From NCBI GenBank assembly GCA_030638325.1, contig DAOWEV010000210.1:1-41441 (forward strand): a stretch of 41,441 nt of DNA, written 5' to 3'. The notes under the pieces are model-generated. The model had not been told where the DNA came from, did no database searches, and saw nothing but the letters and a program-made list of their open reading frames with translations. The translations under genes and the position numbers were made by a program. Positions within the stretch are counted from its first letter, which is position 1. Each line of letters starts with the position of its first letter. This document shows, piece by piece, positions 6,293-40,589 of this stretch. This DNA comes from Bacteroidales bacterium (lineage in GTDB: Bacteria; Bacteroidota; Bacteroidia; Bacteroidales; JAGOPY01).

Positions 6293-6352
6293 ACAAGGTT
6301 GCGAACAAATTGATTAACGATTAACGATTGTAGATTAACGATTTAAGATTTA
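6293..6352 (+). repeat. Anchor ACAAGGTTGCGAACAAATT plus GATTAAC array
   Basis: 6293-6326 matches 7322-7355 at 32 of 34 nt. Confidence 0.85.
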
Positions 6353-6412
6353 TGGTATTATTAACTTTCGGATAGAAAATAATAAATAAGAAATAATAAA
6401 TAATAAATCAAA

Positions 6413-7267
6413 ATGAACATTCTTGTTACAGGCGGAAACGGACAGCTCGGGATGTCAATAAAAGACCTGGCTCATAGCTTCGATAACTACAGTTTTATCT
6501 TTACTGATATTGATGAACTGGACATCACGGACCTGAATGCCCTGCATCAATTCTTTTCAGATCACAGCATAGATATAATCCTGAATTGTGCTGCCTACAC
6601 AGCCGTCGACAAAGCTGAAACCGAATATAATCAGGCTTTGATGATCAATAGGGATGCTGTTCAGAACCTGGTTTTTATTGCAAACGATCATGATGTTTCA
6701 CTGATCCACGTTTCTACAGACTATGTTTTTGATGGAAGATCAAAGCGGCCTTACCTGGAATCAGACCCGGTTTCTCCCACTTCAGCATACGGAAGATCCA
6801 AGGTAGCTGGTGAGAAAATAATATTGGAGAGATCGCAGAATGCCGCGATTGTACGTACTGCCTGGCTGTACTCACCTTATGGGCAGAATTTCGTGAAAAC
6901 CATATTGAAAAAAGGTAAAGAACAGGGTGAGTTGAGGGTCGTCGCCGATCAGGTTGGTAGCCCGACCAGCGCTGCTGACCTGGCCAGTGCAATCCTGCAC
7001 CTTGCAAATGATATGCCCGAAGAGGGGGTTCAGATATATCATTACGCTAATGAAGGTGTCTGCAGTTGGTATGAATTTGCCATGGCGATCCTGGATATTG
7101 GAAATATAGCATGCAAGGTACATCCGGTCAAGTCTGAAGACTATCCGGTTCCTGCACCAAGACCCGCATACAGTGTAATGGATAAATCGAAAATCCAAAA
7201 TCATCTAAGACTGACTGTTCCTGCATGGCGTGAAAGCCTGGAAACATGCATTGATAATATGAAATAG
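6413..7267 (+). CDS. rfbD: dTDP-4-dehydrorhamnose reductase
   Basis: Motifs GGNGQLG, NCAAYTAVDKAE, HVSTDYVFDG, YGRSKxxGE, DQVGSPT and RPAYS. Confidence 0.96.
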   Translation: MNILVTGGNGQLGMSIKDLAHSFDNYSFIFTDIDELDITDLNALHQFFSDHSIDIILNCAAYTAVDKAETEYNQALMINRDAVQNLVFIANDHDVSLIHVSTDYVFDGRSKRPYLESDPVSPTSAYGRSKVAGEKIILERSQNAAIVRTAWLYSPYGQNFVKTILKKGKEQGELRVVADQVGSPTSAADLASAILHLANDMPEEGVQIYHYANEGVCSWYEFAMAILDIGNIACKVHPVKSEDYPVPAPRPAYSVMDKSKIQNHLRLTVPAWRESLETCIDNMK

Positions 7268-7278
7268 AGAATAGAACA

Positions 7279-7472
7279 TCCCTGCACCCGTGCACCCAAA
7301 CACATAAACACCTATCGCAGAACAAGGCTGCAAACAAATTGATTAACGATTAACGGTAGGCGGTTGACGGTTGACGGTTGGCGGTGGGATAGTAGGACTG
7401 TAAGACGGTAGGATGGTAGGACTGATGGATTGTAATTCAAATAAGCGAATAAACAAATAAACGAATAAACAC
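7279..7472 (+). repeat. Composite spacer of five consecutive 7/8-nt arrays
   Basis: In order: CCCTGCAC-like 8-mers; anchor plus GATTAAC; GGTTGAC; ACGGTAGG-like 8-mers; RAATAAAC 8-mers. Confidence 0.8.
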
Positions 7473-7478
7473 AATAGT

Positions 7479-9227
7479 ATGTCAAAAACGCTCATTGATA
7501 AAGAAACATTAAGGAAAGCCGAAGCCTGGACCACAGGTGATTTCGATCAGGAAACAAAAGACAAAGTCAGAGAGCTGCTGGAGAATGACCCGCAGGAAAT
7601 CGTTGAATCATTCTACAGAGACCTGGAGTTCGGTACCGGCGGCCTGCGGGGCATCATGGGTGTGGGCACCAACAGGATGAATAAATATACCGTTGGTATG
7701 GCTACACAGGGACTGGCAAACTACCTGAAAAAAATGTTCAATGATGTTGATGAGATCAGGGTTGCCATAGCATATGATTCCAGAAATAACAGTGAGTATT
7801 TTGCCAGGATCACTGCAGAAGTGTTCTCTTCCAATGGCATGAAGGTGTTCCTGTTTGAGAGCCTCCGCCCTACCCCGGAGCTGTCATTTGCGATCAGGCA
7901 GTTACATTGCCAGAGTGGGATAGTAGTCACGGCCTCCCATAACCCGAAAGAGTACAATGGCTATAAAGCATACTGGGATGATGGCGGGCAACTGATCCCC
8001 CCGCACGATAAAAATGTCATAGAAGAGGCACAGAAGATATCCGGCATCAATGAAGTTATGTTTGAAGGCGATCACAGTCATATAACCATCATAGGTGAAG
8101 AAATCGATGAGGCTTACATGGATAAAGTCAGGGCACAGTCGCTATCACCTGAATTGATCCGCAAACATAAGGATCTGAAGATCGTATATACATCTCTTCA
8201 TGGAACTGGCACGGAATTGGTTCCCAGGGCATTGCGTGAATTTGGATTTGAGAATGTGCATATCGTGGAAGAGCAGGCTATACCCGATGGCAATTTCCCT
8301 ACATTGAAATCGCCCAATCCGGAAGAGCCAGTTGCACTTGAGATGGCGCTGGATAAAGCAAAAGAGATCGACGCCGACCTAATCATGGCAACCGATCCCG
8401 ATGCCGACCGTGTTGGGATAGCCGTGAAAGACCTGGAAGGAAAATTTGTATTGCTAAACGGAAACCAGGCTGCCAGCTTGCTGATCTATTACATACTTAA
8501 AAAATGGCAGGAAAACGGCAAGCTGACTGGCCATGAATTCATTGTAAAAACCATTGTCACATCAGAGCTCCTTGCCGACATGGCACGGAAATTCGATGTT
8601 GATTATTATGATGTCCTGACAGGTTTTAAATGGATCGCTGACATCATCAAACAGCAGGAAGGGATCCGGACATTCATCACCGGCGGAGAAGAAAGTTATG
8701 GCTATATGGTGGGTGATTTCGTAAGGGATAAAGACGCTGTCACCTCCTGTGCGTTGATAGCAGAAGCCACGGCCTGGGCCCGTGAACAGGGCAAAGGATT
8801 GTATGAATTACTGATCGATATCTATTCCATCTTTGGATTTTATAAAGAAAAACTCATCTCTATTGTAAGAAAAGGGAAATCAGGCAGTGAAGAGATCCGG
8901 GCCATGATGGATAAATTCAGGAATGATCCGCCGGAGACGATCAACAACAGCACGGTCGTCAGGATCAAAGACTACCTCCTCAGAAAAGACAAGGATCTAA
9001 TTAAGGGTGAAGAAAAAGAGATCACCCTGCCTGCATCAAATGTCCTGCAGTTCTTTCTAAAAGACGGGAGCAAGATCAGCGTCCGCCCCAGCGGAACGGA
9101 ACCAAAGATCAAATTCTACTTCAGCGTAAAAGAAGAGTTAGCGTCGAAAGAGGAGTTTGATAAGGTGAATGCGCTGCTGGACAAAAAAATTGAGAATATT
9201 ATCAACGATCTTGGATTGGAAAGTTGA
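7479..9227 (+). CDS. pgm: Phosphoglucomutase / phospho-sugar mutase
   Basis: Motifs LEFGTGGLRG, TASHNP, DPDADR, GEESYG and RPSGTEPKIK. Confidence 0.93.
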   Translation: MSKTLIDKETLRKAEAWTTGDFDQETKDKVRELLENDPQEIVESFYRDLEFGTGGLRGIMGVGTNRMNKYTVGMATQGLANYLKKMFNDVDEIRVAIAYDSRNNSEYFARITAEVFSSNGMKVFLFESLRPTPELSFAIRQLHCQSGIVVTASHNPKEYNGYKAYWDDGGQLIPPHDKNVIEEAQKISGINEVMFEGDHSHITIIGEEIDEAYMDKVRAQSLSPELIRKHKDLKIVYTSLHGTGTELVPRALREFGFENVHIVEEQAIPDGNFPTLKSPNPEEPVALEMALDKAKEIDADLIMATDPDADRVGIAVKDLEGKFVLLNGNQAASLLIYYILKKWQENGKLTGHEFIVKTIVTSELLADMARKFDVDYYDVLTGFKWIADIIKQQEGIRTFITGGEESYGYMVGDFVRDKDAVTSCALIAEATAWAREQGKGLYELLIDIYSIFGFYKEKLISIVRKGKSGSEEIRAMMDKFRNDPPETINNSTVVRIKDYLLRKDKDLIKGEEKEITLPASNVLQFFLKDGSKISVRPSGTEPKIKFYFSVKEELASKEEFDKVNALLDKKIENIINDLGLES

Positions 9228-9282
9228 TACTTAGAGACTAAATCAATTAGGAATGCGAATTAAGGGTTGGGGTTTTGTTTTA

Positions 9283-9521
9283 ACCACAAAGGCACACAAA
9301 GTATTTCACAAAGTACTTCACAAAGGATTAAAGAAAACATTTGATTATTATAATTATAGAAAATATTTCAAATGGCACAAATACTCACTTATTTGAAACT
9401 TTCAGGATGTTAGTCAGGCTTATTGGCAAACTGTAATGTCAGACAATTGAAAGACGGTATTAAACGGGTTATTCTTTAGTCCTTAGAGTGACTTTGTGAT
9501 ATCCTTTGTGCACTTTGTGGT
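9283..9521 (+). pseudogene. GxxExxY-family (PD-(D/E)XK-like) gene remnant inside CACAAAG/CTTTGTG inverted-repeat arrays
   Basis: 9372-9479 translates as MAQILTYLKLSGC*SGLLANCNVRQLKDGIKRVIL*, matching my recollection of the family C-terminus (AQLLxYLKxxxxxLGLLINF..LKxGIKR). Flanked by ACCACAAAG...CACAAAG (4 copies) and CTTTGTG x3 ending CTTTGTGGT. Confidence 0.78.
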
Positions 9522-9581: not shown

Positions 9582-9655
9582 CCCGTCTTCGGTCTTCGGA
9601 CTTCGGACTTCCGTCTCTCAACTCTCAACTCTCAACTCTTATCTCTCACGCTTCA
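9582..9655 (-). repeat. Continuous 7-nt phased array GAGTTGA then AAGTCCG, starting at the stop codon of the GreA-like gene
   Basis: Minus strand: GTTTTGA AGCGTGA GAGATAA GAGTTGA x3 GAGACGG AAGTCCG x2 AAGACCG AAGACGG. Confidence 0.9.
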
Positions 9656-10114
9656 AAACACATCAATTATCTTTCCTTTCTTCCCACGAAACTCAAATGA
9701 ATCGCCTTTTTTCAGGTTTTCTATGGCGGCATAAAACGGTACGAAAGGAGAGATAACAAAGTAATCATCTCCATCAACATTCACTTTGCCTATCCCGGCA
9801 GAAATAAATAGCTTCTGTTCCCCGGTAAAAACAATGGCCCCGAAACAGGCCTTATCGGTAAGTCTCTCGGGTTCCACTTTGTCAAGTATATCCAACTGTT
9901 CCATAGCCTTCTGGACCTGTTTTGCAAACATATCCCGTTTCCTCAACAACTGGGTACGGAAGGAATCATAACGATCCTTGGGAGCGCCGTATTCATTGGC
10001 GCTGTCCTGTGCTTCCTTCATCACTTCTTTGAGTTCTTCCGAAGCATCCACCTGGTATTTCCTGCATGCTTCCAGAACCGTTCTTTTCAAGGCTATTTTG
10101 TCAGCTTCTTTCAT
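9653..10114 (-). CDS. GreA/GreB-like transcription elongation factor family protein (Bacteroidota type)
   Basis: N-terminal coiled coil with KDRYDS.R; C-terminal FGAIV..FISAGIGK..VISPxxP..KKGDSF fold. Confidence 0.7.
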   Translation of the reverse strand: MKEADKIALKRTVLEACRKYQVDASEELKEVMKEAQDSANEYGAPKDRYDSFRTQLLRKRDMFAKQVQKAMEQLDILDKVEPERLTDKACFGAIVFTGEQKLFISAGIGKVNVDGDDYFVISPFVPFYAAIENLKKGDSFEFRGKKGKIIDVF

Positions 10115-10119: not shown

Positions 10120-10174
10120 CCTAACCCGGACAAACCGGAATTTTAAATTTTAAATTATTAATTTTAAATGTTTT
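10120..10174 (+). repeat. Anchor CCTAACCCGGACAAACCGG plus AATTTTA heptamer array (copy 1)
   Basis: 52 of 55 nt identical to 40535-40589. Confidence 0.9.
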
Positions 10175-10306
10175 ATAAGAGATTCAGTGGATGTTTATTT
10201 AAAAGGAACTAAAGATAGTAATTTTTTACGGCTTATGCAAGTGTTTATTAATTTTTCCCATTAATTTTGTGACCTGGCAGAATAATGTATCTGAAAAACC
10301 GGCATT

Positions 10307-10850: not shown

Positions 10851-10882
10851 AATTTTAAATTTTAAATTTTAAATTATAAATT
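10851..10882 (+). repeat. AATTTTA heptamer array directly after the stop codon
   Basis: Read directly. Confidence 0.75.
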
Positions 10883-11066
10883 TTGAGCCCACTACGAAAA
10901 GTAGTGAAAACTAAATATAGCCACAGATTATTCACAATATTACTTATTTTCAAAGGTGTTCATGAAATCACTTCGTTAAGTTCACAGATTATTAAAAATT
11001 AAATCTGTGAATCTGTGGCATGTTCTTCAATTTTTTTAGATAAACATCTTTTCGGTCTGGACTCAA
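10883..11066 (+). mobile_element. MITE-like element with nested inverted repeats and no ORF
   Basis: Outer IR TTGAGCCCACTACGAAAAG / CTTTTCGGTCTGGACTCAA (15 of 19); inner GCCACAGATT..TTCACAGATT / AATCTGTGAATCTGTGGC. Confidence 0.55.
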
Positions 11067-11258: not shown

Positions 11259-13778
11259 ATGCTTACACTGCGAGATCTCAAAGAGGGTGAGAAAGGGATC
11301 ATCACGAAGGTCAAAGGTCGTGGTGCATTCCGTAAGCGTATCACCGAGATGGGTTTCATCAGAGGAAAATTGGTGACTGTCATCAGAAGCGCCCCTTTTC
11401 AAGACCCTGTGGAGTACCAGATATTAAAATCGTTTGTTTCAATACGACGTAGTGAAGCCAACCTCATTGAAGTCATTAGTGAAGCAGAAGCCAGGAAACA
11501 ACTGGGTGACGCTCAATACGAAGGAGTCATTACAGATGAGCAATTGAAGATCAGCGCCCATGAGAAAGGCCGTCAGATCGAAGTGGCCCTGGTTGGAAAT
11601 CCCAATTCCGGGAAGACTACACTCTTTAACTTTGCCTCCCACTCAAGAGGACATGTAGCCAACTATGGTGGGGTTACGATCGACTCCAAGCTTGCAACAT
11701 TCAAACAGGATGGATACGTTTTTAATATTACAGACCTTCCCGGTACCTATTCCATCACTGACTATTCACCTGAAGAACTGTTTGTCAGAAAACATATCCT
11801 GGGCACTTTCCCGGATGTTGTCATCAACGTGATTGACGCCTCCAACCTGGAGCGAAACCTGTATCTGACCACTCAACTGATCGACATGGACATAAAAGTG
11901 ATCGTGGCGTTGAATATGTATGATGAGCTTATTCTGAAGGGCGACCATTTTGATTATAAAAGCCTGGGAAACATGCTCGGAATACCTTTTGTCAGGACAG
12001 TAGCCACCAGGGGCAAAGGCATTAAAGAGCTGTTCCGGAAAGTCATTGATGTTTACGAGGACAAAGACCCGACGGTGCGGCATATCCACATCAATTACGG
12101 TGATGAAATAGAACAGTCGGTCAGGAGCGTACAGGAACCCCTCAGGGAAAACAAGATACTGATTGACAAGACATCTTCACGATATTATGCCATTAAACTT
12201 CTGGAGAAAGACAAGTCCACTGATTTTTCACTTTCCAGTCTTGATAATTACGAGGCGATCCGGAAAAGGTGTGATGAAGAGATAGGGAGACTTGAAAATA
12301 TCCTGGGGGAAGATAGCGAGACACTCATAACAGATGCCAAGTATGGGTTTATTGAAGGAGCGCTTAAGGAAACCTATACACCGGCCAGGATAGAAAAAAA
12401 ATCAATCAGCCAGAAGCTGGATTCCTTCTTCACCGGGAAATACCTGAGTTATCCCATTTTTGTTGCATTTATGTGGGTGATGTTCCAGACAACTTTCATT
12501 GTTGGCAAATACCCTGTTCTATGGATTGAAAGCCTGGTTGCCGTTACAGGCAATGCCGTTGACATAATACTACCTGAAAGCATGTTTAAAGACCTGCTGA
12601 TCGAAGGTATCATCGGGGGAGTAGGAGGTGTCATAGTGTTCCTTCCGAATATCCTGATCCTGTTTTTTTTCATATCGATCATGGAAGACTCCGGTTATAT
12701 GGCGAGGGTGGCATTCATTTTAGACAAGCTGATGCACAAAATAGGTTTGCACGGCAGGTCTTTCATCCCGCTGCTCATGGGCTTCGGCTGTAATGTACCA
12801 GCCATTATGGCTACCCGTACCATCGAAAACAAGACCGACCGGCTGGTGACCATGCTGGTTACGCCGTTCATGTCATGCAGTGCCCGTTATCCTATTTATA
12901 TCCTGCTCATCAGCGCCTTTTTCACAAGCCACCATGGAACGATATTGTTCGGCATCTATGCGTTTGGCATCATGCTGGCAGGAGCTGTTGCATGGTTATT
13001 AAAAAACACGCTCCTCAAATCACAGGAAATGCCCTTCGTGATGGAGTTACCTCCTTACCGGTTCCCTACCGTAAAAAGTATCATGAAGCATACCTGGTTC
13101 AAAGGTTCGCAGTATCTCCGCAAGATCGGTGGTGTGATCCTGATCGCCTCGGTGATTATCTGGGCATTGGGTTATTTTCCTAGAAACACCGGGGTAAATG
13201 ATCATTATGAAGTGATGATATTGCAGCTAACAGAAAAATATAACGATAAGATCTCTGTGGCAGCTCAGTGGGATCCGGAAAGTGTAGAAGGATTAAAAAA
13301 TGAGATGACTGACAGCATCTCAGGCCTGGAATCTGAGAAACAACGGTTACAGCAGGAATATTCATTTATCGGCCGCCTTGGTAAATTCATTGAGCCTGTA
13401 ATAGCACCACTGGGATTCGACTGGCGCACGGGAGTCAGCCTCATTGCAGGCGCCGCTGCCAAAGAGGTGGTGGTAAGCACCATGGGTGTTCTTTATCAAT
13501 CCCATACAGAAAAAGACACCAATGGACTGATCTCAACATTACGCAACCTGACTTACAACAGTGGTAAACTGAAAGGTCAGAAGGTATTCTCCCCCCTCAT
13601 CGCCCTTACCATCATGCTCTTCGTCCTTATCTATTTCCCGTGCATCGCTGTCATTGCCACTATCAAAAAGGAGTCCGGGGCATGGAAATGGTCATTGTTC
13701 CTAATGGTTTACACTACGGCAATGGCCTGGACAATATCCTTTCTCTTTTATCAGGGAGGAACGCTGTTGGGGTTTTAG
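11259..13778 (+). CDS. feoB: Ferrous iron transporter FeoB with N-terminal FeoA fusion
   Basis: FeoA SH3-like N-terminus (R.xEMGF..G..V.VIR.APFxDP); GTPase motifs GNPNSGKT, DLPGTYS and NMYD; membrane motifs GFGCNVPA, PFMSCSAR and YFPC. Confidence 0.96.
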   Translation: MLTLRDLKEGEKGIITKVKGRGAFRKRITEMGFIRGKLVTVIRSAPFQDPVEYQILKSFVSIRRSEANLIEVISEAEARKQLGDAQYEGVITDEQLKISAHEKGRQIEVALVGNPNSGKTTLFNFASHSRGHVANYGGVTIDSKLATFKQDGYVFNITDLPGTYSITDYSPEELFVRKHILGTFPDVVINVIDASNLERNLYLTTQLIDMDIKVIVALNMYDELILKGDHFDYKSLGNMLGIPFVRTVATRGKGIKELFRKVIDVYEDKDPTVRHIHINYGDEIEQSVRSVQEPLRENKILIDKTSSRYYAIKLLEKDKSTDFSLSSLDNYEAIRKRCDEEIGRLENILGEDSETLITDAKYGFIEGALKETYTPARIEKKSISQKLDSFFTGKYLSYPIFVAFMWVMFQTTFIVGKYPVLWIESLVAVTGNAVDIILPESMFKDLLIEGIIGGVGGVIVFLPNILILFFFISIMEDSGYMARVAFILDKLMHKIGLHGRSFIPLLMGFGCNVPAIMATRTIENKTDRLVTMLVTPFMSCSARYPIYILLISAFFTSHHGTILFGIYAFGIMLAGAVAWLLKNTLLKSQEMPFVMELPPYRFPTVKSIMKHTWFKGSQYLRKIGGVILIASVIIWALGYFPRNTGVNDHYEVMILQLTEKYNDKISVAAQWDPESVEGLKNEMTDSISGLESEKQRLQQEYSFIGRLGKFIEPVIAPLGFDWRTGVSLIAGAAAKEVVVSTMGVLYQSHTEKDTNGLISTLRNLTYNSGKLKGQKVFSPLIALTIMLFVLIYFPCIAVIATIKKESGAWKWSLFLMVYTTAMAWTISFLFYQGGTLLGF

Positions 13779-13804
13779 AGTTGAGAGTTGAGGGATGAGA
13801 GTTG
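13779..13804 (+). repeat. AGTTGAG heptamer array in phase with the feoB stop codon
   Basis: GTTTTAG AGTTGAG AGTTGAG GGATGAG AGTTG. Confidence 0.75.
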
Positions 13805-13937
13805 TTAATATTTCTTAAATCTATTGGTTTGCCTGCAATATATCTTTTCGCATTTTAGTTTATTCAAAAAGATTGCCTCTGCTGATTTCTACAAAAGTCC
13901 ATTTTTTTAGTACTTTATTTATCCAAAATTAGCCGTT

Positions 13938-16900
13938 ATGTTATCATTAAAACGACCTCTAAAAATTGCTTCTGTTTTCCTCATTTTATTGTTTATTATT
14001 TCATCCTGTGAGCATCAGGAAAAAAAACAATGTACTGAACAAGAACTGAGTGAATATGTGCTTGCTTATACCTCGGGCGTTATTTCATCCGGATCTGGTA
14101 TCAAGGTGAGGTTGGCTAATATTCCTGAAAATTGGTATGTTGGGGAAATGATTCCCTATGGGTATTTCCGGTTTGATCCGCCTGTTCACGGTACAGCATA
14201 CCTGAGAGAGTTCAATGTAATTGAATTTGTGCCTGAAAATAATTTTAAATCAGGAAAAGAGTATAAGCTTGATTTCCATCTTGGTAAGATTTTTACTAAT
14301 ACTCCAGGATATTTAAAAACTATTCCATTTAGTTTCACGATCATCAGCCAGGATTTTGAAATAGATGCAATTGGCTTGTCATTGTCAGGGGATGACAATC
14401 TTTATATCTATAAAGGAATCATCAGGACAGCAGACATCATCACTGATTTTGAATTGGAAAAAATATTAAATGCCTGGATTAATAATAAAAAGATGGATAT
14501 CCAATGGGAACATAATGCATCCGGAAGATCGCACACTTTTAAGATTTCCGGGATCCCCCGCCTGGATAATGAGCAGGAATTAATAATTAAATGGGATGGA
14601 AAAGAAATTGATGTCGATAAAACCGGATCGGAAACCGTCAAAATCCCTTCAAAAGAAGTATTTAATATAAGTTCGGTGCAAGTCGTGCAGGAGCCTGAAC
14701 AATATGTTGTTATCAGGTTTTCAGATCCTATTGATAATGAAATGAACCTGGATGGATTAATTACAATGACTTCTGCTGATAAATTAAAATTCACCATAAG
14801 CGGTAATACAATAAAGGTTTATCCGGGCCAGACACTTAATGGAGCACAGAAACTTGAGATATTTTCGGGTATTAAAAACTCCGTGGGGCGACGCCTTCCA
14901 AAAAATTATGAATACATTTTAAGTTTTGAAGACCTGAAACCTGCCGTAAAATTGCTAAGCAATGGTGTGATCCTTCCATCCTCCGAGGGGTTAGTTCTTA
15001 ATTTTGAAGCTGTAAACCTGAAAGCGGTTGACCTTACAATTTTCAGGATATATGAAAATAATATTCCACAATTTTTACAAGTAAACAGAATGGGGGAATC
15101 TAATGAAATGACACGTATTGGAAAGCCAATCCTTAAAAAACAGGTTAAGCTGGCAACGGCCAGCAATACAAACTTTAGCAACTGGAGTGTATATTCGTTA
15201 GAGCTGTCGGAAATAATAAATCAGGAACCCGGGGCGCTTTACAGGGTTCTGATAAGTTTTAAGAAAGAATATTCTACATATGATTGTTATGAAAGTGGTG
15301 AAAATGAAAAGGATGAATTACTGCTTGAAACAACGTATGACCTGGATGAAGAATTCAGTGGTTGGGATGCTCCGTATTATTACAATTCTTACTATCCACA
15401 AGGCTACAGGTGGTCGCAGCGGGATAATCCCTGCCATGTTTCATATTATTATAGAGACAGGTTTAAAAGCACAAACCTGCTGGTTTCTGATCTCGGCATA
15501 ATTGCAAAAGGTGCAACAGACCACTCCATGTTTTTTGCAGTCACCGATCTTAAATCAACAAATACTATTGGTGGAGTAATTTTAGAAGTATATGATTATC
15601 AAAACCAATTACTGGAAACGATAAAGACAGGCCAGGATGGTTTTGCAGAATTAACATTTAATAAAAAGCCCTATTTACTTGTTGCCAGTCATAACAGGCA
15701 AAAAGGATATTTACGATTGGATGATGGGACATCCCTGTCGATGAGCAAATTTGATGTAAATGGCATGCGTGTCCAAAAAGGGCTTAAGGGATTTATATAT
15801 GGTGATCGCGGCGTCTGGAGGCCCGGTGATACATTGTTTCTGAATTTTATTTTGTACGATGAAGATAATGTGCTTCCGGAAGGCCATCCGGTGAAAATGG
15901 AGCTTTATAACCCCCAAGGACAACTCGTGAAAAGCAAGGTGGGCATAGATAATGCATTTGGGATTTATAATTTCACCATGACCACTTATTCATCGGCCCC
16001 AACAGGGAACTGGCGTGCAAAGGTGAGAGTTGGCAACATTGAATTCAGCAGGAGAATAAGGGTTGAAACAATAAAACCAAATCGCCTGAAAATAAAACTT
16101 GATTTGGGCAATGATAAAATCCTTGCCTCTACGGGCTTTGTGAAGGGTAGTATTCAATCAAACTGGCTGCATGGTGCCCCGGCTAAAGACCTTAGGGCAT
16201 CCATTGAAATGACATTAAATAGGAGTTATACAGCTTTTGAGAATTATCCGGATTTTACTTTTACCGACCCCACCAAATATTTTGAATCAACTACATCAAT
16301 AATTTTTGATGATACTCTTAATGATTCAGGGTTTGCCCGCTTTAATTCGCAGTTAGGAAACTCGAGCCGTGCTCCGGGGATGTTAAAAGCCATTTTCTAT
16401 ACACGTATTTTTGAGAAAGGCGGTGATTTTAGTTTTGACTATTATTCTTTACCATATTCTCCTTATAATAAATATATTGGAATAAAACCGCCGGAAGGCG
16501 ATGACAGAAATCAATTGCTTACTGATTCGATTCATAAAATCGAAATTATTACCGTTGATTATCACGGGAACCCTGTACAAACAAAGGGTCTTGTTGTGAG
16601 GGTTCTTAAGGTAAATTGGAATTGGTGGTGGAATGCTACCGATAATGATCTTGCATCTTATTATGGTGATGAATATCTGAACCCAGTGGAAGAGACCAAA
16701 GTATCAACAGATCAGAATGGGAAGGCAAGTTTTAAATTTTCTATCCCTTATCCTTCCTGGGGCAGATACCTTATACATGTTTCCGACCCTGTCGGAGGGC
16801 ATGCCTGTGGTAAAAGTGTGTTTGTCGACTGGCCCGGATATGCCGGCAGAGACCGGGCTGGACATCCTGAAGCAGCTTCAATGCTTAATTTTACTTCAGA

Positions 16901-19511: not shown

Positions 19512-19513
19512 AA

Positions 19514-19548
19514 ATTGTCGATTGTCAATTGTCAGTTGTCGATTGTCA
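19514..19548 (+). repeat. ATTGTC(A/G) heptamer x5
   Basis: Starts 2 nt after the stop codon; the same family occurs at 32612-32639. Confidence 0.9.
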
Positions 19549-19607
19549 ATTTTTAATGATCATTATTTATTAATACCGGATAGATAATAATGCTTAGATA
19601 GCGAAAT

Positions 19608-26041: not shown

Positions 26042-26143
26042 ACAAAATTGTTTATTAATAATTAATTTACAATCTTGGAACGGAGAAAACCAATGGTTTA
26101 TTATAGATGTGGAAAACTTTTATCGTAACGCAAGCGATGCGAC

Positions 26144-26731
26144 TTAGACAGTCAGAACAACCTCTTTCTCCTTAATAAGCTTACGGATGTTGATCAGGGC
26201 ATAACGCATACGTCCGAGGGCAGTGTTGATACTTACGCCAGTCTGTTCGGCAATGTCTTTGAAACTCATGTCATAGTAATGCCGCATATACAGCACTTCT
26301 TTCTGTTCTGCCGGAAGGTGTTCGATCAGGACCCGAACATCCTGATGTATTTGATCCGTAACGATCCTCTCTTCAATGGATGGGTCGGTAAATTTGATCG
26401 TCTCGAAAATATCAAAATCCTCATGACTGTTATCAAACAGCGGTAATCTCCTGGACTTCCTGAAATGGTCGATTATCAGGTTATGGGCGATACGCATCAC
26501 CCATTGGATGAACTTGCCTTCTTCCTTATAGGATCCGGCACGGATGGTGTTGATAACCTTGATGAAAGTATCCTGGAATATATCGTCAGCCAATTGCTTA
26601 TCCCGTACGATCATAAGAATATAGGCGAATACTTTGTCCTGGTGCCGGTGGATCAATCGCTCCAGGCTGGTTTGACTACCGTCTAAATATTCGCAAATCA
26701 GCTGCTTATCGCTAATTTTGATAGCATTCAT
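26144..26731 (-). CDS. ECF-type RNA polymerase sigma-70 factor
   Basis: Region 2 ADDIFQDTFIK..F..WVMRIAHN..IDHFRK; region 4 LP.EQKEV..MSFKDIAE..GVSINTALGRMRYA. Confidence 0.95.
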   Translation of the reverse strand: MNAIKISDKQLICEYLDGSQTSLERLIHRHQDKVFAYILMIVRDKQLADDIFQDTFIKVINTIRAGSYKEEGKFIQWVMRIAHNLIIDHFRKSRRLPLFDNSHEDFDIFETIKFTDPSIEERIVTDQIHQDVRVLIEHLPAEQKEVLYMRHYYDMSFKDIAEQTGVSINTALGRMRYALINIRKLIKEKEVVLTV

Positions 26732-26869
26732 AATGCCTCCCTTTTTAATATTTTATGTTATAAAAAAGGTAAATATTTATTCGATAGCCGTCCTCCTGTT
26801 TTTTAGGTAAGTTGTAAATATTCTTTATAAAACCTGAAAAAAAAATTAAAAATTTCCTTTTCCTGATTG

Positions 26870-26877
26870 CAAAGATA
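26870..26877 (-). promoter_or_regulatory. -7 box TATCTTTG for the ECF sigma gene
   Basis: Reverse complement of CAAAGATA; TTG upstream at appropriate spacing. Confidence 0.6.
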
Positions 26878-27011
26878 ACACCATAATTTAAAAATGCAAC
26901 TGATTATTAATATTTTTGCAAATTTATTCTCCATCTTATACGCAAATATTAAAAAATAGTTTTATTTAATGTTAGAGACTGTTTTAAGAATAGCGTAAAA
27001 ATTCAGAAGTA

Positions 27012-29852: not shown

Positions 29853-29927
29853 TGAAGCGTGAAATGTGAGATGTGAAGAGATGATAATTGCTCGCTGCCC
29901 ATCTCAACTCTCAACTCTCAACTCTCA
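29834..29927. repeat. Opposed heptamer arrays filling the convergent uvrA/rlmB gap
   Basis: Plus strand AGCATGA AACGTGA ATAGTGA AGCGTGA AATGTGA GATGTGA (overlaps the uvrA end); minus strand GATTTGA (rlmB stop) GAGTTGA x3. Confidence 0.88.
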
Positions 29928-30671
29928 AATCTCCACCTGCCGCTGCCTCACCACCTCGTACAATATCATCCCGGCAGAAACAGAGACATTAAATGATGCA
30001 ATGCTACCCTTCATGGGGATGCTTACCGCCTCGTCGGCCAGCTCCAGGATGGTTCGTGAGATACCTTTTTCTTCAGAGCCAATGATGATGGATAGAGGTA
30101 CTTTAAGATCAGCCTGGTACGGCATCAGGTCTGATTTTTCAGTTGCTGCCAGGATATAAAGCCCGCTCTCTTTCAGGTATTTAATAGCGTTGGCCAGGTT
30201 GGAAGAGCGGCACACCGGCACCTTGTGCAGGGCGCCGGCAGATGTCTTCACAGCATCCTCGTTGATCATGGCGCTGCCCTTTTCCGGAACAATCACTGCA
30301 TGTACGCCGGTCCCTTCTGCCGTACGTACTATGGCTCCCAGGTTCCTGACATCCGTGATCCCTTCCAGCACCATCACCAGCGGGGTCTCCCCTTGCTCGA
30401 ACACAAATGGCAAAATATCTTCAATATGCTGATAGGTGATGGCTGAGATAAAGGCTATCACCCCCTGATGGTTCTTCCTGGTAACCCTGTTCAGCTTTTC
30501 GATGGGCACATACTGGTATGGGATGCCGGTATTTTTGACCAGTCCCATCATCTCGGAAGACAACGGGCCGCCTTTCAGGCCCTTTTTCACCAGCACCTTA
30601 TCAATCTCCTTCCCTGCCATGATTGCTTCGATAACCGGCCTCAGTCCATAAATAAAATTTTCTTTGCTCAA
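29925..30671 (-). CDS. rlmB: 23S rRNA (G2251-2'-O)-methyltransferase, TrmH/SpoU family (TTG start)
   Basis: Motifs NHQGV, DVRNLGAIVRTA, GSEEKGIS and IPMKGSIASFNVSVSAG; -7 box TATTTTTG at 30697-30704. Confidence 0.94.
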   Translation of the reverse strand: MSKENFIYGLRPVIEAIMAGKEIDKVLVKKGLKGGPLSSEMMGLVKNTGIPYQYVPIEKLNRVTRKNHQGVIAFISAITYQHIEDILPFVFEQGETPLVMVLEGITDVRNLGAIVRTAEGTGVHAVIVPEKGSAMINEDAVKTSAGALHKVPVCRSSNLANAIKYLKESGLYILAATEKSDLMPYQADLKVPLSIIIGSEEKGISRTILELADEAVSIPMKGSIASFNVSVSAGMILYEVVRQRQVEI

Positions 30672-30721
30672 ATCTTCACTATTTAATTGGTTTCAGCAAA
30701 AATACAGGAAAATTTGCGGAT

Positions 30722-30871
30722 AGAAACTAAATCAATTACGAATTAGGAATTGAAACCGATATGCGAGAATTGAAACCACTTGCAGGTTGCAGGTTTCGAC
30801 TCGCAACCTGCAACCCGTAACCCGTAACTCGTAACCCGTAATAATAAAATCTCAACCCTTGATTCGCATTA
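30722..30871 (+). repeat. Anchored element: AGAAACTAAATCAATT, GAATTAG units, AGGTTGC/AACCCGT hairpin and TCAACCCTTGATTCGCATTA end
   Basis: Left end shared with 9233 and 23478; right end 18 of 20 identical to 9538-9557. Confidence 0.82.
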
Positions 30872-30876
30872 ATAAC

Positions 30877-30884
30877 TATCTTTG
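30877..30884 (+). promoter_or_regulatory. -7 box TATCTTTG for the C1A peptidase gene
   Basis: TAnnTTTG 23 nt upstream of the ATG. Confidence 0.65.
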
Positions 30885-30907
30885 TGAAAAACTAAATTTA
30901 TCAGAAA

Positions 30908-32542
30908 ATGAAGAAAATTGTACTACTTTCGACTATAATGACCGCATCTGTCTGGCTTTTCGGTCAAATTCCTGCTTCTTTTGACCTGAGGGATTACAAC
31001 GGAGAGAACTACGTGACCAGTGTTAAAAGTCAGCAGGGAGGTACTTGCTGGACCCATGGGGCAATGGCTGCCATGGAAGGGAACCTGTTGATGACAGGAG
31101 CCTGGTTTGCAGCCGGTGAGCTTGGCGAACCGGCCCTGGCAGAATATCACCTGGATTGGTGGAACGGATTCAATGAGCATAACAACGATGACCTGGTTCC
31201 CCCGACAGGCGCGGGACTGGAAGTGCACTATGGAGGTGATTATATGGTTACTTCGGCTTATCTTGCAAGAAACGAAGGTGCCGTCAGGGACATAGACGGC
31301 CAATCATATACCAATCCCCCCCTGCGGTTTGATTCGAGTTATCACTATTATTATGCGCGTCAAATCGAATGGTATACCCTTGGCGATGACCTGGAAAATA
31401 TCGAAGTGATCAAACAGGCCGTCATGGATTATGGTGTCATGGGTACCTGTTTGTGTTCCAGTGGCGCGTTCATGAACAACCAATATGTACATTACCAGCC
31501 ACCCAGCAATTCGCAGGATCCCAATCATGCCGTGGCCATCATCGGATGGGACGATGATAAAGTTACGCAGGCCCCCGAGCCCGGCGCCTGGTTAATAAAA
31601 AACAGCTGGGGCTCAGGTTGGGGATTGGGTGGTTATTTCTGGATCTCTTATTATGACAAACACTGCTGCAGGGAACCCCAAATGGGCGCCATCTCATTTC
31701 AGGATGTAGAACTGCTTCAATATAAAAATACCTATTATCATGATTACCATGGATGGCGGGATACCAAAGAAGACCAGGAGGAAGCCTTCAATGCCTTTGT
31801 GGCCGGAGGTAATGAGATACTGAAGGCCGTCAGCTTCTTCACTGCCACAGATAGTGTTATTTACAGTGTGGTCATATATGATGATTTCAATGGCGGGGAA
31901 TTGGAAAATCAACTGGGTGAAGTTTCCGGCACATTGTATCATACAGGTTTTCATACCATTGACATGCCTGAATACATCGGCCTGACCGAAGGGGATGATT
32001 TTTATGTTTACCTCTCCCTGGATGATGGCGGACAGCCTTATGACAGAACTTCAGAGGTACCCGTTCTTTTAGGTTCGAGGTACAGAACACTGGTGGAATC
32101 TGCTGCCAGTCTGGAAGAAAGCTATTATAAAATAGGCGGCGATTGGCTGGACTTTTATAATTACAACGATCCTTCCGGATATCAAAATACCGGGAACTTT
32201 TGCATCAAAGGCCTGACGGTAACCGATACACTCACAGGTATAGGCGATAACCCCGGATCACTAAATGAAGAATTGTTGGGACAAAACTCTCCGAACCCCT
32301 TCGTTTCACAGACAAAGATAAGTTTCTCCCTGCCTGAGTCTGCACATATCTCGCTTCACATATATAACCTTGCCGGTCAGAAAGTTTGTACCCTGATTGA
32401 TGGTCAGGCGCTTGCCGGGAGCCATACCATTACCTGGGATGGCACGGATAATACGGGAAAAAGGCTGGAACCCGGAATCTATGTTTACAGGCTGATAACA
32501 CCACAGGGATCAGCTGTCAGGAAGATGGTTCTTGCTAAATAG
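30908..32542 (+). CDS. Secreted papain-like (C1A) cysteine protease with a lectin-like domain and a FlgD-Ig/T9SS-type C-terminal domain
   Basis: Signal peptide; PASFDLR..VTSVKSQ..GTCW (Cys), NHAVAIIGW (His), WLIKNSWG (Asn); C-terminal [19 protein letters not shown]...GIYVYRL. Confidence 0.9.
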
Positions 32543-38236: not shown

Positions 38237-39014
38237 ACTACTTACCAACCAGGTTTGCACCCTTTGCAGAGGCACCGGCCAGTTTATTCAGGAGGAAGCC
38301 AGGAAGATCTCTCCCCAGGATATTGAAGAAAAAAGCAGGCACAATTTTGTCACTTATGTTGATAAGGTAGCAGAGGAGAGATTGATAGCCAAACTTTCGA
38401 AAGCCATTCCCGAGGCCGGTTTCATAGCTGAAGAGGGCACCAGTACAATGACAAGCCGGGATGTCAACTGGATCATTGACCCGCTTGACGGCACCACCAA
38501 TTTTATTCATGCCGTGCCCATATATTCCATCAGTATTGCACTCAGATACCATGATGAGATCATACTGGGGGTTGTTTACGAAATTAACCTGAAAGAGTGC
38601 TTTTATAGCTGGAAAAACAGTCCGGCCTTTCTGAACGGGCAAAAGATACATGTATCGAAGGCGAATGGTTTGAACGATTCCCTTTTGGCCACGGGATTTC
38701 CATACGATGACCGGGGAAAAACAGGTAAATACCTGGAGCTGTTCAGGCAGCTATTACTTAACAGCCGGGGCATTCGCAGGCTGGGCTCGGCTGCTGTTGA
38801 CCTGGCTTATGTGGCCTGTGGCCGCTTCGACGGATTCTATGAATACGGACTGAACCCCTGGGATGTGGCTGCCGGTGCCTTTATCGTTCAACAAGCCGGT
38901 GGACAGGTAACAGATTTCAGCGGAGGAGATAATTTTTTGCATGGTAAGCAGTTAATATCCAGTAACGGACTTATCCATCAGGAGATGCTGGATATCCTGT
39001 CGAATTACTTTTAG
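38226..39014 (+). CDS. suhB: Inositol monophosphatase family protein (start corrected to ATG 38226; overlaps the lgt end by 11 nt)
   Basis: Motifs FVTYVD, AEEG, WIIDPLDGTTNF, RRLGSAAVDL and WDVAAG. Confidence 0.92.
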   Translation: MDLELLTNQVCTLCRGTGQFIQEEARKISPQDIEEKSRHNFVTYVDKVAEERLIAKLSKAIPEAGFIAEEGTSTMTSRDVNWIIDPLDGTTNFIHAVPIYSISIALRYHDEIILGVVYEINLKECFYSWKNSPAFLNGQKIHVSKANGLNDSLLATGFPYDDRGKTGKYLELFRQLLLNSRGIRRLGSAAVDLAYVACGRFDGFYEYGLNPWDVAAGAFIVQQAGGQVTDFSGGDNFLHGKQLISSNGLIHQEMLDILSNYF

Positions 39015-39035
39015 GAGTCGTGAAAATTGCTTTAT

Positions 39036-39112
39036 CAGGATACAGAATACAGGTTGCAGGTTACAGGTTGCAGGTTACAGGTTGCAGGTTACAGGTTGCA
39101 GGTTGCAGGTTG
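39036..39112 (+). repeat. CAGGTT(G/A) heptamer x11 with 14-nt alternation
   Basis: Eleven contiguous in-phase units, the first two variant. Confidence 0.93.
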
Positions 39113-39177
39113 AGTGAAGTTAAACCCCGTAGGGACACTAATCATATAAATTAACCATTGAAAGTAAAAAACTAAAG

Positions 39178-40539
39178 ATGATGAAAGGCCTTTTAATTAT
39201 ATTGTTTATCATAGCTTCCTTCTGGAATTATTCGGGCGGGCAGGATACAGATGATTCCATGAAGAAAGTCAGGATCTATAAATTCGATATCAAGAAGGAG
39301 ATCGCTCCGCCGGTATGGCATTCCACCAAACTGGCCTTTGCAGAAGCCGAAGCTATGGATGCCGACATCGTGCTCCTCCACCTCAACACCTATGGCGGGA
39401 TGCTCGAGTCGGCCGATTCCATCCGGAACCGGATATTGGAATCGGAAATACCGGTATATGTTTTCATCGATCACAATGCTGCTTCTGCGGGTGCCCTGAT
39501 ATCGATCGCCTGCGACAGCATTTACATGGTTCCCGGGGCAACCATCGGGGCGGCGACAGTCGTGGATCAAAAGGGGGAAGTGGTACCTGACAAATACCAA
39601 TCATACATGCGTGCCATGATGCGTTCCACCGCCGAGGCTACCGGCCGTGATCCTGACATAGCCCAGGCTATGGTAGACCCCAGGATAAAGATCGAAGGCA
39701 TCGTCGATTCCGTGAGTGTGTTGACTTTTACTTCCAGCGAGGCGCATCAGCATGGTTACTGCGAAGCTATTTTAAATAATATTCCGGAACTCCTGGAACA
39801 TGCGGGTATTGAAGATTATGAGATCACCGAACAGGAACTGAGCCCACTTGATAAGATCATCAGCTTTCTCATTCATCCCATGGTGAGTGGCTTGCTGATC
39901 ATGGTCATTGTGGGCGGAATATATTTTGAGCTTCAGTCGCCTGGTGTAGGGTTTCCGTTGGGCGCTGCCATCGTGGCTGCGATCATCTATTTTGCACCAT
40001 TGTACCTGGAAGGAATGGCAGATCACTGGGAGATAGTCATGTTTGTTGTGGGTGTGATCCTGATAGCTGTTGAGATCTTCGCCATACCCGGCTTCGGGAT
40101 TGCCGGGGTCAGCGGTATTCTCCTGATCGTTCTCGGACTAACGCTCAGTTTGATCGGGAATGTCGGGTTTGATTTCACAGGCATCAACGCGACTGCAATC
40201 TTTTCTTCATTTTTTCTCGTGATAACGTCAATTTTCCTGGCCATGATACTGTCATACTTTATCACCAGAACCATGTTCACCGAAAACTTTCTTTTCAAGT
40301 CGCTGGCACTGAATACCGTACAAAATTCCGAAGAAGGATACTCGGCCTCATTCCAGGCGTATAAAAATATGATCGGCAAGCAGGGCGAGGCCTTCACTAT
40401 GCTAAGGCCTGCCGGCAAGGTCATCATAGAAGGAAACGTTTACGATGCAACAGTCCTGTCGGGCTTTGTCGAAAAAGGGGACCGGATCGAGGTCGTAAAA
40501 TATGAAACCTCACAATTGTTTGTCCGGAAAATAACCTAA
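39178..40539 (+). CDS. NfeD-family membrane-bound serine protease (ClpP-like domain, TM segments and OB-fold)
   Basis: Motifs LNTYGG, AASAGALIS, GATIGAA, EIFAIPGFG and the C-terminal G.A.T.LRPAGKV..YDA. Confidence 0.9.
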   Translation: MMKGLLIILFIIASFWNYSGGQDTDDSMKKVRIYKFDIKKEIAPPVWHSTKLAFAEAEAMDADIVLLHLNTYGGMLESADSIRNRILESEIPVYVFIDHNAASAGALISIACDSIYMVPGATIGAATVVDQKGEVVPDKYQSYMRAMMRSTAEATGRDPDIAQAMVDPRIKIEGIVDSVSVLTFTSSEAHQHGYCEAILNNIPELLEHAGIEDYEITEQELSPLDKIISFLIHPMVSGLLIMVIVGGIYFELQSPGVGFPLGAAIVAAIIYFAPLYLEGMADHWEIVMFVVGVILIAVEIFAIPGFGIAGVSGILLIVLGLTLSLIGNVGFDFTGINATAIFSSFFLVITSIFLAMILSYFITRTMFTENFLFKSLALNTVQNSEEGYSASFQAYKNMIGKQGEAFTMLRPAGKVIIEGNVYDATVLSGFVEKGDRIEVVKYETSQLFVRKIT

Positions 40540-40589
40540 CCCGGATAAACCGGAATTTTGAATTTTAAATTATAAATTTTAAATGTTTT
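40535..40589 (+). repeat. Anchor CCTAACCCGGATAAACCGG plus AATTTTA array (copy 2), containing the nfeD stop codon
   Basis: 52 of 55 nt identical to 10120-10174. Confidence 0.9.

Follow-up and report, generated by a model that had tools for sequence, protein, structure and literature searches.

Heptamer arrays and anchors in the window

The stretch of DNA analysed here (41,441 nt, called the window in the following) is one contig of a 79%-complete Bacteroidales MAG of 2.75 Mb from cold-seep or marine sediment. The genes flanking the repeat elements described below are housekeeping genes (rmlB-like, rmlD, pgm, recA, nfeD) and are spread over 258 contigs; the window also encodes a small SRP RNA (265–372). 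Heptamer tandem repeats of cyanobacteria have been known for decades, and a few other lineages have been noted to carry them as well. In the genome harbouring the window we counted 1240 period-7 tandem arrays with 202 canonical units. Such arrays occur in 530 of the 1533 intergenic spacers, and 113 arrays lie inside ORF calls, the gene calls used here being crude ORF calls.

A preliminary description of the window had paired five heptamers with a conserved anchor each (a–e), and all five pairs could be located. The two copies of pair a (anchors at 6293–6311 and 7322–7340, plus strand) are identical at 32 of 34 positions, those of pair b (10120–10138 and 40535–40553, plus strand) at 52 of 55 positions and those of pair d (22202 and 25850, both minus strand) at 15 of 15. 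The three loci of family c, 9233 and 30722 on the plus strand and 23478 on the minus strand, had been placed correctly as well, with two degenerate, two and eight units, respectively, instead of about two, two and seven. In family e the tail AATAAAATC stands behind the AACYCGT arrays at 217 and 30843. Arrays of cognate units without an anchor exist too, also in the window. The elements and arrays are as follows.

160–226, plus strand: family e copy 1, inverted heptamer arrays GCGGGTTGC / AACYCGT, then the tail AAATAAAATCC; just upstream of the SRP RNA
1020–1051, plus strand: GATTAAC array of 4.6 units without the family a anchor, a counter-example to strict coupling
6268–6362, plus strand: family a copy 1; stop codon TAA (6284–6286) of the upstream gene in the left module, then a small stem–loop anchor (6293–6311) and a GATTAAC array in the variant-unit order usual for the family
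7322–7422, plus strand: family a copy 2, a mosaic; anchor 7322–7340, two GATTAAC units, then ACGGTTG/ACGGTAGG arrays instead
9233–9262, plus strand: family c copy 1, truncated; anchor at 9233, 5 nt past the TGA (9225–9227) of a phosphoglucomutase-like gene, two degenerate units, no c tail, then another dispersed repeat
10120–10180, plus strand: family b copy 1, C-anchor subfamily; anchor 10120–10138, frozen AATTTTA array; the spacer is divergent, and the minus-strand gene 9653–10114 starts 5 nt away
10851–10884, plus strand: AATTTTA array of 4.9 units that lacks the b anchor and is likewise a counter-example
22096–22202, minus strand: d copy 1; anchor 22188–22202, 15 nt after the TAG of a TPR gene; inverted GAAGTCG/CGACTTC arrays, long hairpin (z −2.6)
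23322–23478, minus strand: full-length copy 3 of family c; anchor 23463–23478, eight ASGAATT units, middle module 23384–23406, a small hairpin of the GGATGG...CCATCC type, tail end at 23322; about 35 nt downstream of recA and co-oriented with it
25745–25850, minus strand: d copy 2; anchor 25836–25850 beside an inverted heptamer-array hairpin (z −5.4)
30722–30774, plus strand: family c copy 2; anchor, two units and middle module, no c tail, joined immediately to a family e element
30780–30851, plus strand: family e copy 2; TTGCAGG / CAACCTG hairpin, AACCCGT array, tail AATAATAAAATC
40534–40626, plus strand: full-length copy 2 of family b; the anchor 40535–40553 contains the TAA (40537–40539) of an NfeD-like gene, then a frozen AATTTTR array and a tail ending T8-AAG..CTAA (40608–40626)

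The hairpin at the fused copies of families c and e has a z of −4.5 (30722–30860).

Copy number, coupling and anatomy of the elements

On both strands of the 258 contigs we found, at 0, 1 and 2 mismatches, 4, 12 and 21 copies of anchor a, 4, 10 and 18 of anchor b, 7, 22 and 42 of anchor c, and 2, 3 and 19 of anchor d; the 9-mer of e gave 120, 2462 and 21434 matches. An anchor was regarded as coupled if at least two cognate units are directly adjacent. This is the case for 8 of 12 copies of anchor a at ≤1 mismatch (15 of 21 at ≤2), for 8 of 10 copies of b (9 of 18) and for 20 of 22 copies of c (31 of 42). As two such units start at only 103–510 of 5,502,292 positions (about 1 in 10,000–50,000), the coupling of a, b and c far exceeds chance. 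Anchor d is coupled at one of its two exact matches (1 of 3 at ≤1 mismatch, 1 of 19 at ≤2) and is represented by its two window copies only, the third match at ≤1 mismatch being unrelated. The e 9-mer, coupled in 5 of 120 cases, is unspecific alone but belongs to a longer conserved tail, AACAATAAAATC and then in many copies CTGTTTGG, which by reading follows about 14 of the 41 listed AACYCGT arrays. Within families defined by TRF the anchor k-mer is present at 18 of 61 AACGATT arrays and at 23 of 43 AATTAGG arrays. Thus, the dispersed families postulated earlier can be upheld for a, b, c and e, given the genome-wide coupling and the longer e tail, but not for d with its two window copies. The earlier argument that local slippage is not sufficient holds for these four families, which are dispersed genome-wide with anchor and heptamer tightly coupled; a, b and c are not confined to the window loci.

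That such recurrences arose by chance or by slippage at every locus separately, or that they were produced by the assembly, might be supposed from the frequency of the e 9-mer alone, from the two copies of d and from the fact that assemblies break at arrays, 213 of the 1240 arrays being located at contig edges. However, anchors of 16–19 nt recur 12–22 times with the coupling given above, and period-7 arrays are also present in contigs of other, independent studies (X2, X6) and are therefore not an assembly artefact. This explanation is extremely improbable, and for a, b and c it is refuted by the copy counts, the coupling and the independent contigs. As Logan contigs, too, end at arrays, the arrays are a main cause of the fragmented assemblies of these sediment bacteria.

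The elements are about 95–200 nt long and non-coding, as they contain no ORFs. Their left end has many stop codons and often a stem of 4–5 bp with a 5-nt loop; the heptamer array and a family-specific tail of 40–110 nt follow. The fixed end of the preliminary description is thus correct, but it is one of two conserved ends. By inspection, the anchors contain small stem–loops; a likeness among the a, b and c ends (TAG/TAA..CT..TTAA) was noted by eye only. The genome contains 21 elements of family a, 14 of family b and 37–42 of family c. From 63 matches to the c anchor 12-mer we aligned 21 full-length copies; c elements have a conserved middle and tail after the units, are 91–94% identical over about 116 nt and vary from 1 to 8 units at ≤1 mismatch and up to 11 at ≤2. 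Families a and b are built likewise, but their unit number hardly differs, and the order of the variant units is constant between copies. Most a copies have GATTGTA as third unit and the full-length ones end in inverted GATTAAC arrays, and the b copies (90–99% identical over 75–85 nt) split into two subfamilies, T or C in the anchor going along with particular array variants. The proposed variability in unit number is hence true for c and e, whereas the arrays of a and b are largely frozen.

Since both flanks and the order of the variant units are common to the copies, we suggest that whole elements have been copied and then altered by slippage. Heterogeneity of the unit number, as had been suspected, is indeed seen in population contigs, where one contig of run X1 has an additional AGAGTTG (+7) at 13776 and 14 nt are lost at 24737 in run X6. 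The anchors are the left modules of dispersed composite elements that are probably copied whole, preferentially at stop codons, and later undergo slippage and module exchange. Many unlinked intergenic sites would have received whole elements, preferentially exactly where a co-oriented gene ends, at its stop codon or across it. Once in place, the internal array would change in length by replication slippage, and modules would be swapped between families, giving rise to mosaic copies. Among the genomes compared for presence or absence of the elements, which comprise no other member of the host genus, the c tail has 39 matches in the host genome versus none in 13 genomes of the same family. A genome of another family (G067) has one copy, 83% identical over 114 nt and also abutting a TAA, and the 2-kb locus around it contains nothing else matching the host genome. 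A metagenome scan found no close relative, and with Logan contigs breaking at the arrays an empty site was not observed.

Position at gene ends and proposed mode of copying

In family a the upstream gene is co-oriented in 16 of 21 copies, and its stop codon lies exactly 22 nt before the anchor in eight copies and 6 nt before it in three. Of the five b copies with a co-oriented upstream gene, four are −5 to +6 nt from its stop codon; for c the distance is −4 to +7 nt in 13 of 19 copies. Within the 323 co-directional spacers, period-7 arrays come to ≤10 nt from the stop codon in 118 cases and from the start codon in 29 cases, where 52.6 would be expected for a uniform distribution. Their orientation relative to the genes is 22:4 for GATTAAC, 29:6 for GAGAGTT, 20:7 for AATTTTA and 13:5 for AGGAATT. 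The left boundary of family a can hold any of the three stop codons, which fits selection on position equally well as a sequence-specific target.

The location hard against stop codons, the depletion beside start codons and the orientation bias relative to transcription are also in line with modules that are kept by selection as 3′-UTR or intergenic signals and whose spread is secondary. Possible roles are transcript-end or stability elements, platforms for a protein reading 7-nt units and fail-safe stops; several units contain, by inspection, stop codons in the co-oriented strand. Of five b copies that lie between co-directional genes, three by reading span the distance from the stop codon to about 2–10 nt before the next start codon. 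In addition, the inverted array pairs fold far better than shuffled sequences (the z values of −2.6, −4.5 and −5.4 given above), arrays of ASGAATT are found in 56 out of 120 further families within the order, and for TAACTGA arrays regulator binding has been proposed (MacGregor 2015, PMC4679880). Nevertheless, a, b and c themselves are unstructured as RNA (z −0.3, −1.0 and −0.6) and match no Rfam family, modules and unit numbers vary freely among copies, and the c tail is absent from the 13 same-family genomes. None of the 20 runs holding host DNA is an RNA run. Selection as the main explanation therefore appears rather unlikely, and it would be compatible with the copying of composite elements.

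Single-strand transposition by HUH/Y1 enzymes results in one insertion orientation and proceeds without target duplication. When boundary offsets were scanned with k = 2–9, a target-site duplication turned up at best in one c copy out of 20 and in one of six b copies, so that this proposed sign of mobility was not borne out. From the missing target duplication and the one-orientation insertion, and with eight such genes in the genome, we infer a single-strand transposase: most plausibly, the elements are transposed in trans by a HUH/Y1 transposase of the IS200/IS605 type. The eight Y1_Tnp genes are above the Pfam cut-off with IS200/IS605 as best NCBIfam match, and their proteins are below the NCBIfam RAYT cut-off. 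At the flanks of these genes no ends of a, b or c were found, and no autonomous element with such ends came to light; MAGs usually lose IS copies. What stands at the flanks are different repeats, GC-rich hairpins as well as an inverted end of 26 nt with 37 occurrences, and only one heptamer-hairpin element is located directly upstream of a Y1 gene. Terminal inverted repeats were not clearly recognized, the one hint being a weak by-eye resemblance of the c left end to the reverse complement of its right end, and a semi-conserved AG.. pentamer precedes c in 13 of 20 copies. Non-autonomous derivatives of IS200/IS605 (PATE-like) have neither terminal inverted repeats nor target-site duplications, but subterminal hairpins and an oriented insertion beside a short target, with a Y1 TnpA in the genome. 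The present elements may be of this kind, although no TnpA was linked directly to their ends. The mobile cassettes considered in the preliminary description are thus conceivable only as non-coding MITE- or BOX-like elements and not as carriers of cassette genes, the neighbours being housekeeping genes.

As a further possibility, units could be added in place, with a cap or anchor serving as the recognition site of an enzyme that seeds or extends the array by templated or slippage-assisted synthesis; arrays at unrelated loci would then have the cap in common without being mutual copies. The motif ATCAATT followed by two ASGAATT units occurs 30 times in the host genome, and 16 further cases come from 5 of 120 other Bacteroidales families; the mirrored order has 0 occurrences in the former and 1 in the latter. 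This polarity, the unique sequence at both sides of the capped arrays in two other genomes (G070 and G107) and the span of 1 to 11 units in family c point to such an addition. Growth in place does not predict, however, that tails and variant-unit order are copied along with the anchor in the host genome, and a candidate enzyme was not identified. Furthermore, the cap is perhaps merely two to three conserved bases (ATC) ahead of an AATT-phased unit, and a very short mobile unit would look identical. Addition in place is in our opinion quite improbable; for the enzymatic addition of units at the anchor, as envisaged before, we found no evidence, and the polar 5′ cap alone keeps the idea alive. 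It is also unlikely that the capped polar arrays of ATCAATT and ASGAATT units at gene 3′ ends are the smallest mobile or enzymatically seeded unit, with anchors and tails as passengers. Across six or more families of the order, such arrays may recur at unrelated loci and share no further flank, and they may be placed by a single-strand (Y1/HUH) or a novel enzyme.

Thus, we favour the copying of composite elements, by which the arrays of the host genome would travel inside two-ended elements that land on stop codons in one orientation and leave the target unduplicated. Distant Bacteroidales families have one capped array type in common. The origin of heptamer arrays thereby becomes testable.

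Relation to known repeat systems

The BOX elements of Streptococcus pneumoniae, a Firmicute, are organized as boxA-(boxB)n-boxC with a unit of about 45 nt. Like the present elements, they are modular non-coding dispersed repeats with fixed end modules and a variable number of internal tandem modules; BOX elements are not known to be linked to stop codons. The STRR heptamer repeats and the ‘small dispersed repeats’ of heterocyst-forming cyanobacteria comprise, as does the host genome, many intergenic families of 7-nt tandem arrays with tiny dispersed repeats nested among them. In contrast to the cyanobacterial hosts, the host here belongs to the Bacteroidales (T9SS sorting domain, small SRP RNA, RecA neighbours), and to our knowledge STRR arrays have never been described as two-ended composite elements at stop codons.

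Direct repeats of the heptamer TAACTGA are found in Beggiatoaceae, Cyanobacteria and five Bacteroidetes, and other heptamer repeats are noted in the same spacers (MacGregor 2015, PMC4679880). Like the arrays described here they are intergenic, oriented relative to genes and common to distant lineages including Bacteroidetes. On the contrary, TAACTGA arrays are located a few nucleotides upstream of start codons, whereas the present arrays are enriched at stop and depleted at start codons and have anchors, which the sections of that paper considered here do not report. With the REP, BIME and REPIN sequences and their RAYT transposases, as portrayed in parts of Bertels & Rainey (2011, PMC3116915) and Di Nocera (2013, PMC3733652), the host genome has in common several intergenic families per genome, mosaic clusters and Y1 genes flanked by inverted hairpin repeats. 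An identity of a, b and c with REPIN/RAYT systems was rejected, as they have no palindromic doublets, fold no better than shuffled sequences and are not found at Y1 genes; unlike REP elements as described there, they lack GTAG/CGTC heads. The other repeats of the host genome, the hairpins and the 26-nt inverted end at Y1 genes, may be REPIN/RAYT candidates.

The preliminary description knew of no matching named system, but the architecture has already been reported for the BrickBuilt MITE of Porphyromonas gingivalis, which consists of leader, tandem units and tail and is present in 19 copies, always intergenic (Klein et al. 2015, PMC4596501). Both systems share the order Bacteroidales, the architecture, the multi-copy and intergenic nature and the variable unit number. 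BrickBuilt, however, is one family with a 23-nt unit, is 49–591 nt away from coding sequences and ends in small inverted repeats, whereas the present elements have a 7-nt unit, comprise at least four module-exchanging families and abut or overlap stop codons; clear inverted-repeat ends were not seen in them. As in MITEs the elements are small (<600 nt), non-coding and multi-copy, and unlike MITEs they lack target-site duplications. By analogy, the likeness to BrickBuilt and BOX is architectural only, with a leader, variable tandem units and a fixed tail in common and no sequence relationship. The elements thus belong with the known BOX, BrickBuilt, BIME and STRR-like repeats.

Genome-wide coupling of anchors and heptamers

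All anchors and heptamers of the preliminary description are present in the window where it had placed them, and its pair identities are borne out (32/34 for family a and 52/55 for family b); the d pair is identical at 15/15 positions. It had further given family c copies of about 2, 2, and 7 units; two copies of 2 units are indeed found, one of them degenerate, but the third has 8. The proposal that these are several dispersed families, each with one fixed end and a variable number of units, is largely right, although the single fixed end and the inclusion of d as a family have to be given up. The genome-wide counts of the anchors and their cognate arrays are as follows.

Table. Anchor matches in the genome and adjoining cognate units
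Family (heptamer); matches at 0/1/2 mismatches; two or more cognate units directly after the anchor (anchors with at most one mismatch); background, positions starting two cognate units per 5.5 million
a (GATTAAC); 4/12/21; 8 of 12; 120
b (AATTTTA); 4/10/18; 8 of 10; 360
c (ASGAATT); 7/22/42; 20 of 22; 269
d (GAAGTCG/CGACTTC); 2/3/19; –; –
e (AACYCGT), anchor 9-mer; 120/2462/21434; –; –

The e 9-mer alone is unspecific and comes after the array in only 5 of its 120 copies. A longer e tail, AACAATAAAATC, often followed by CTGTTTGG, is seen by eye at about 14 of the 41 AACYCGT arrays in a listing of all arrays; a frequent left partner of e arrays is a GCAGGTT array with GCGAAAATGA, and the whole forms a hairpin. 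The d similarity comprises two copies, both in the window, and when aligned locally they match across anchor and adjoining array alike. Given these copy numbers, the coupling counts, and the e tail, we conclude that a, b, c, and e are neither restricted to the window loci nor uncoupled from their heptamers, whereas d has no true copies beyond the window pair and is not a dispersed family. The reverse coupling is incomplete: the anchor k-mer accompanies AACGATT arrays in 18 of 61 cases and AATTAGG arrays in 23 of 43, and the window itself contains arrays without anchor (GATTAAC at 1020 and AATTTTA at 10851).

Heptamer arrays are abundant in this genome. By our own count about 45 of the 70 tandem repeat (TRF) rows of the window have period 7, and genome-wide the figure is 1240 of 3312 rows with 202 canonical units. 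Of these 1240 arrays, 113 lie inside open reading frames, 213 at contig edges, and the remainder between genes; 530 of 1533 spacers carry at least one. Because so many arrays sit at contig edges, and because Logan contigs from four public sequencing runs (window 12000–31900) also stop at arrays, for example, at 22064, 23407, 23454, 24766, 25498, and 30850, it is evident that the arrays fragment assemblies. Joints between two arrays in Logan contigs are repeat-induced and were left out of the evidence. Further features of the window are:

1–154: tandem array of period 8/9 (GGGTATAA, TTCCCCTAT) at the window start
160–226: family e copy with the small SRP RNA gene immediately downstream
265–372: Bacteroidales small SRP RNA (Rfam, 106.7 bits)
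1185–1257: tRNA; at the gathering threshold Rfam finds nothing in the window besides this tRNA and the SRP RNA
9263–9400: separate dispersed element, AACCACAAAGG..CACAAAG repeats and then ATTTCAAATGGCACAAATAC, located here 3′ of the truncated c copy and on contig C52 (near 8900) 3′ of a copy of family a
22188–22202 and 25836–25850, minus strand: the sole two d copies, direct repeats 3.6 kb apart that bracket a TPR gene, recA, and one further ORF, with a long heptamer hairpin beside each
41371–41441: tandem array at the window end, with 5.1 perfect copies of a 14-mer

Modular anatomy of the elements

Contrary to the idea of a lone fixed end, the elements of families c, b, and a continue past the array into a conserved tail. 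From left to right, family c elements have AG.., CTAAATCAATT, (ASGAATT)n, then GAAACCGCTATGCGGGAATTGAATTT as the middle module and optionally CGACAACATCCAATTTGA, after which come either of two small palindromes and a tail with the end TTTTTAAGAGCCTA; a query of the last array units, the middle module, and the tail is matched 39 times genome-wide. Family b elements measure 95 nt, end in T8-AAGGTACTAA, and fall into two subfamilies, in which an anchor base, T or C, tracks particular array variants. Family a reaches 22 nt further left than the anchor originally proposed, and its full copies extend about 90 nt further up to an inverted GATTAAC array; in most family a copies the third unit is GATTGTA. 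The shared tails together with the shared order of variant units imply that whole elements were copied rather than grown independently at each site.

Copies are mosaic: left halves of c are fused to e (window 30722–30851) and in other cases to a module of the heptamer-hairpin type or a repeat associated with Y1 genes. The hairpin module within c on contigs C49, C219, and C235 was considered as proof of insertion, but recombination explains it equally well, and the reading as a nested insertion was dropped since the c middle module and the neighboring family share a homologous module.

We also considered whether anchor and array of families a, b, and c form a structured RNA. Their predicted stability is no greater than that of shuffled sequences (z −0.3, −1.0, and −0.6, respectively). 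Inverted array pairs are much more stable, with z values of −2.6 and −5.4 beside d and −4.5 in e.

Placement at stop codons and a candidate mover

Gene positions come from a rough ORF prediction of ours, with 1958 ORFs that take up 86% of the genome. A co-oriented gene lies upstream of family a in 16 of 21 cases, and the distance from its stop codon to the anchor is exactly 22 nt in eight of them and 6 nt in three; all three stop codons are represented at this boundary. For family b the distance to the stop is between −5 and +6 nt in four of the five copies with a co-oriented upstream gene, and for family c it is between −4 and +7 nt in 13 of 19. At a1, the first window copy of family a, the final codons of an epimerase gene extend into the left module of the element, and the TAA of an NfeD-like gene is inside anchor b2. 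The NfeD-like protein is not truncated, as 2 residues separate the end of its Pfam C-terminal domain from the stop. Across 323 co-directional spacers an array is found within 10 nt of the stop in 118 and within 10 nt of the start in 29, both against an expectation of 52.6, and several unit families are co-oriented with the genes (e.g., 22:4 and 29:6).

A scan of the element boundaries found no target-site duplication, and terminal inverted repeats could not be demonstrated for the elements. The genome has eight stand-alone Y1_Tnp genes above the Pfam cut-off (contigs C43, C202, C239, C19, C132, C176, and C168; L087–L094), whose best NCBIfam match is IS200/IS605, with the cut-off passed by four of seven fragments. 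An assignment as RAYTs was rejected, as the NCBIfam RAYT model stays below cut-off with weak matches in two of seven fragments. Most Y1 genes are bracketed by inverted GC-rich hairpins and an inverted 26-nt end (GGCTAAAT...GTGCTGG), which occurs 37 times in the genome around at least four different internal sequences; this layout of Y1 gene and flanking repeats resembles REPIN/RAYT or PATE systems. The ends of a, b, and c were not found flanking the Y1 genes. Single-strand transposition by a Y1 enzyme would leave no duplications and would be expected to go along with small stem–loops and one-way orientation, and we infer that such a transposition could have moved the a, b, and c elements. In a comparison of 120 families of the order, genomes with ASGAATT arrays number 53 of 92 where a Y1 gene is present versus 3 of 28 where there is none, a hint at most, since genome size, habitat, and the genome-size dependence of the E-value confound this association.

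Unit numbers shift in population contigs, by +7 nt at 13776 (run X1) and −14 nt at 24737 (run X6). Searching metagenomes with the TPR protein encoded between d1 and c3, the minus-strand c copy near recA, gave only three loci of 24–28% identity and no close strain. The feature is real, and the mechanism of its spread is what we infer.

Occurrence in the order and relation to known repeats

The genome (2,751,146 bases, 258 contigs, 78.7% complete, 42% G+C; the window is contig C150) belongs to Bacteroidales, as indicated by a window protein that carries a sorting domain for type IX secretion and supported by the SRP RNA and by RecA neighbors named Bacteroidales or other Bacteroidota. Public runs with window DNA are labeled cold-seep or marine-sediment metagenome, a habitat call that leaves out runs X9–X20 with their small word shares; one of the two runs that contain at least half of the sampled words may be the source of the genome. 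No second member of the genus is among the genomes compared, and RecA is 81–84% identical to that of the 12 matching same-family genomes. The recA loci of such relatives from other genera (L002–L006) carry different arrays, for example, GTTCCTG x10, CTCAAAT x5, and GTTAGTG x3. Heptamer arrays are a family-wide trait, and their units turn over.

At BLAST sensitivity the c tail has no match in any of the 13 same-family genomes. A single copy, 83% identical over 114 nt, occurs in G067 from another family, and nothing else in the 2-kb locus around it matches our genome; this copy could be due to horizontal spread or to a mis-binned contig. An exact 25-nt c-middle pattern gave 0 matches in the collection of genome contigs, an outcome of little weight, since the G067 copy is too diverged for an exact search. 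Outside the family the b anchor (CCTAACCCGGAYAARCCGGAAT) was found in G085 only, in two copies (L130 and L140) without AATTTTA array; therefore, the b anchor can exist alone. Other BLAST matches to b were discarded as AT-rich arrays or chance CCGG-AATTTT junctions.

The ASGAATT array is matched in 56 of 120 other families. The cap ATCAATT followed by two units occurs 30 times in our genome and 16 times in 5 of the 120 (G070 8, G107 5, and one each in G067, G086, and G088), and the mirrored order occurs 0 times and once, respectively. The capped arrays of G070 and G107 are flanked by unique sequence on either side and often touch a stop or start codon. G070, which has no same-genus genome among those compared, also carries an array-plus-tail family of its own, matched 65 times. 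At G070:C5:398720–399315 (L164–L169) the tail after a capped ACGAATT array forms a tandem repeat itself, with some five copies and a period near 150 nt, and further copies are dispersed elsewhere.

None of the literature searched describes anchored heptamer elements in Bacteroidales. The elements represent a variant within a known kind of modular dispersed repeats. Pneumococcal BOX elements likewise consist of leader, tandem units, and tail, and the cyanobacterial STRR are 7-nt arrays resembling those described here. The three-part plan is also found in BrickBuilt of P. gingivalis (PMC4596501). The position at stop codons and the polarity of the cap are the most interesting features. The TAACTGA repeats (MacGregor 2015, PMC4679880) are likewise 7-nt arrays, but they are located before starts and not at stops; its supplements list repeat positions in Bacteroidetes, which might bear on this comparison of stops and starts.
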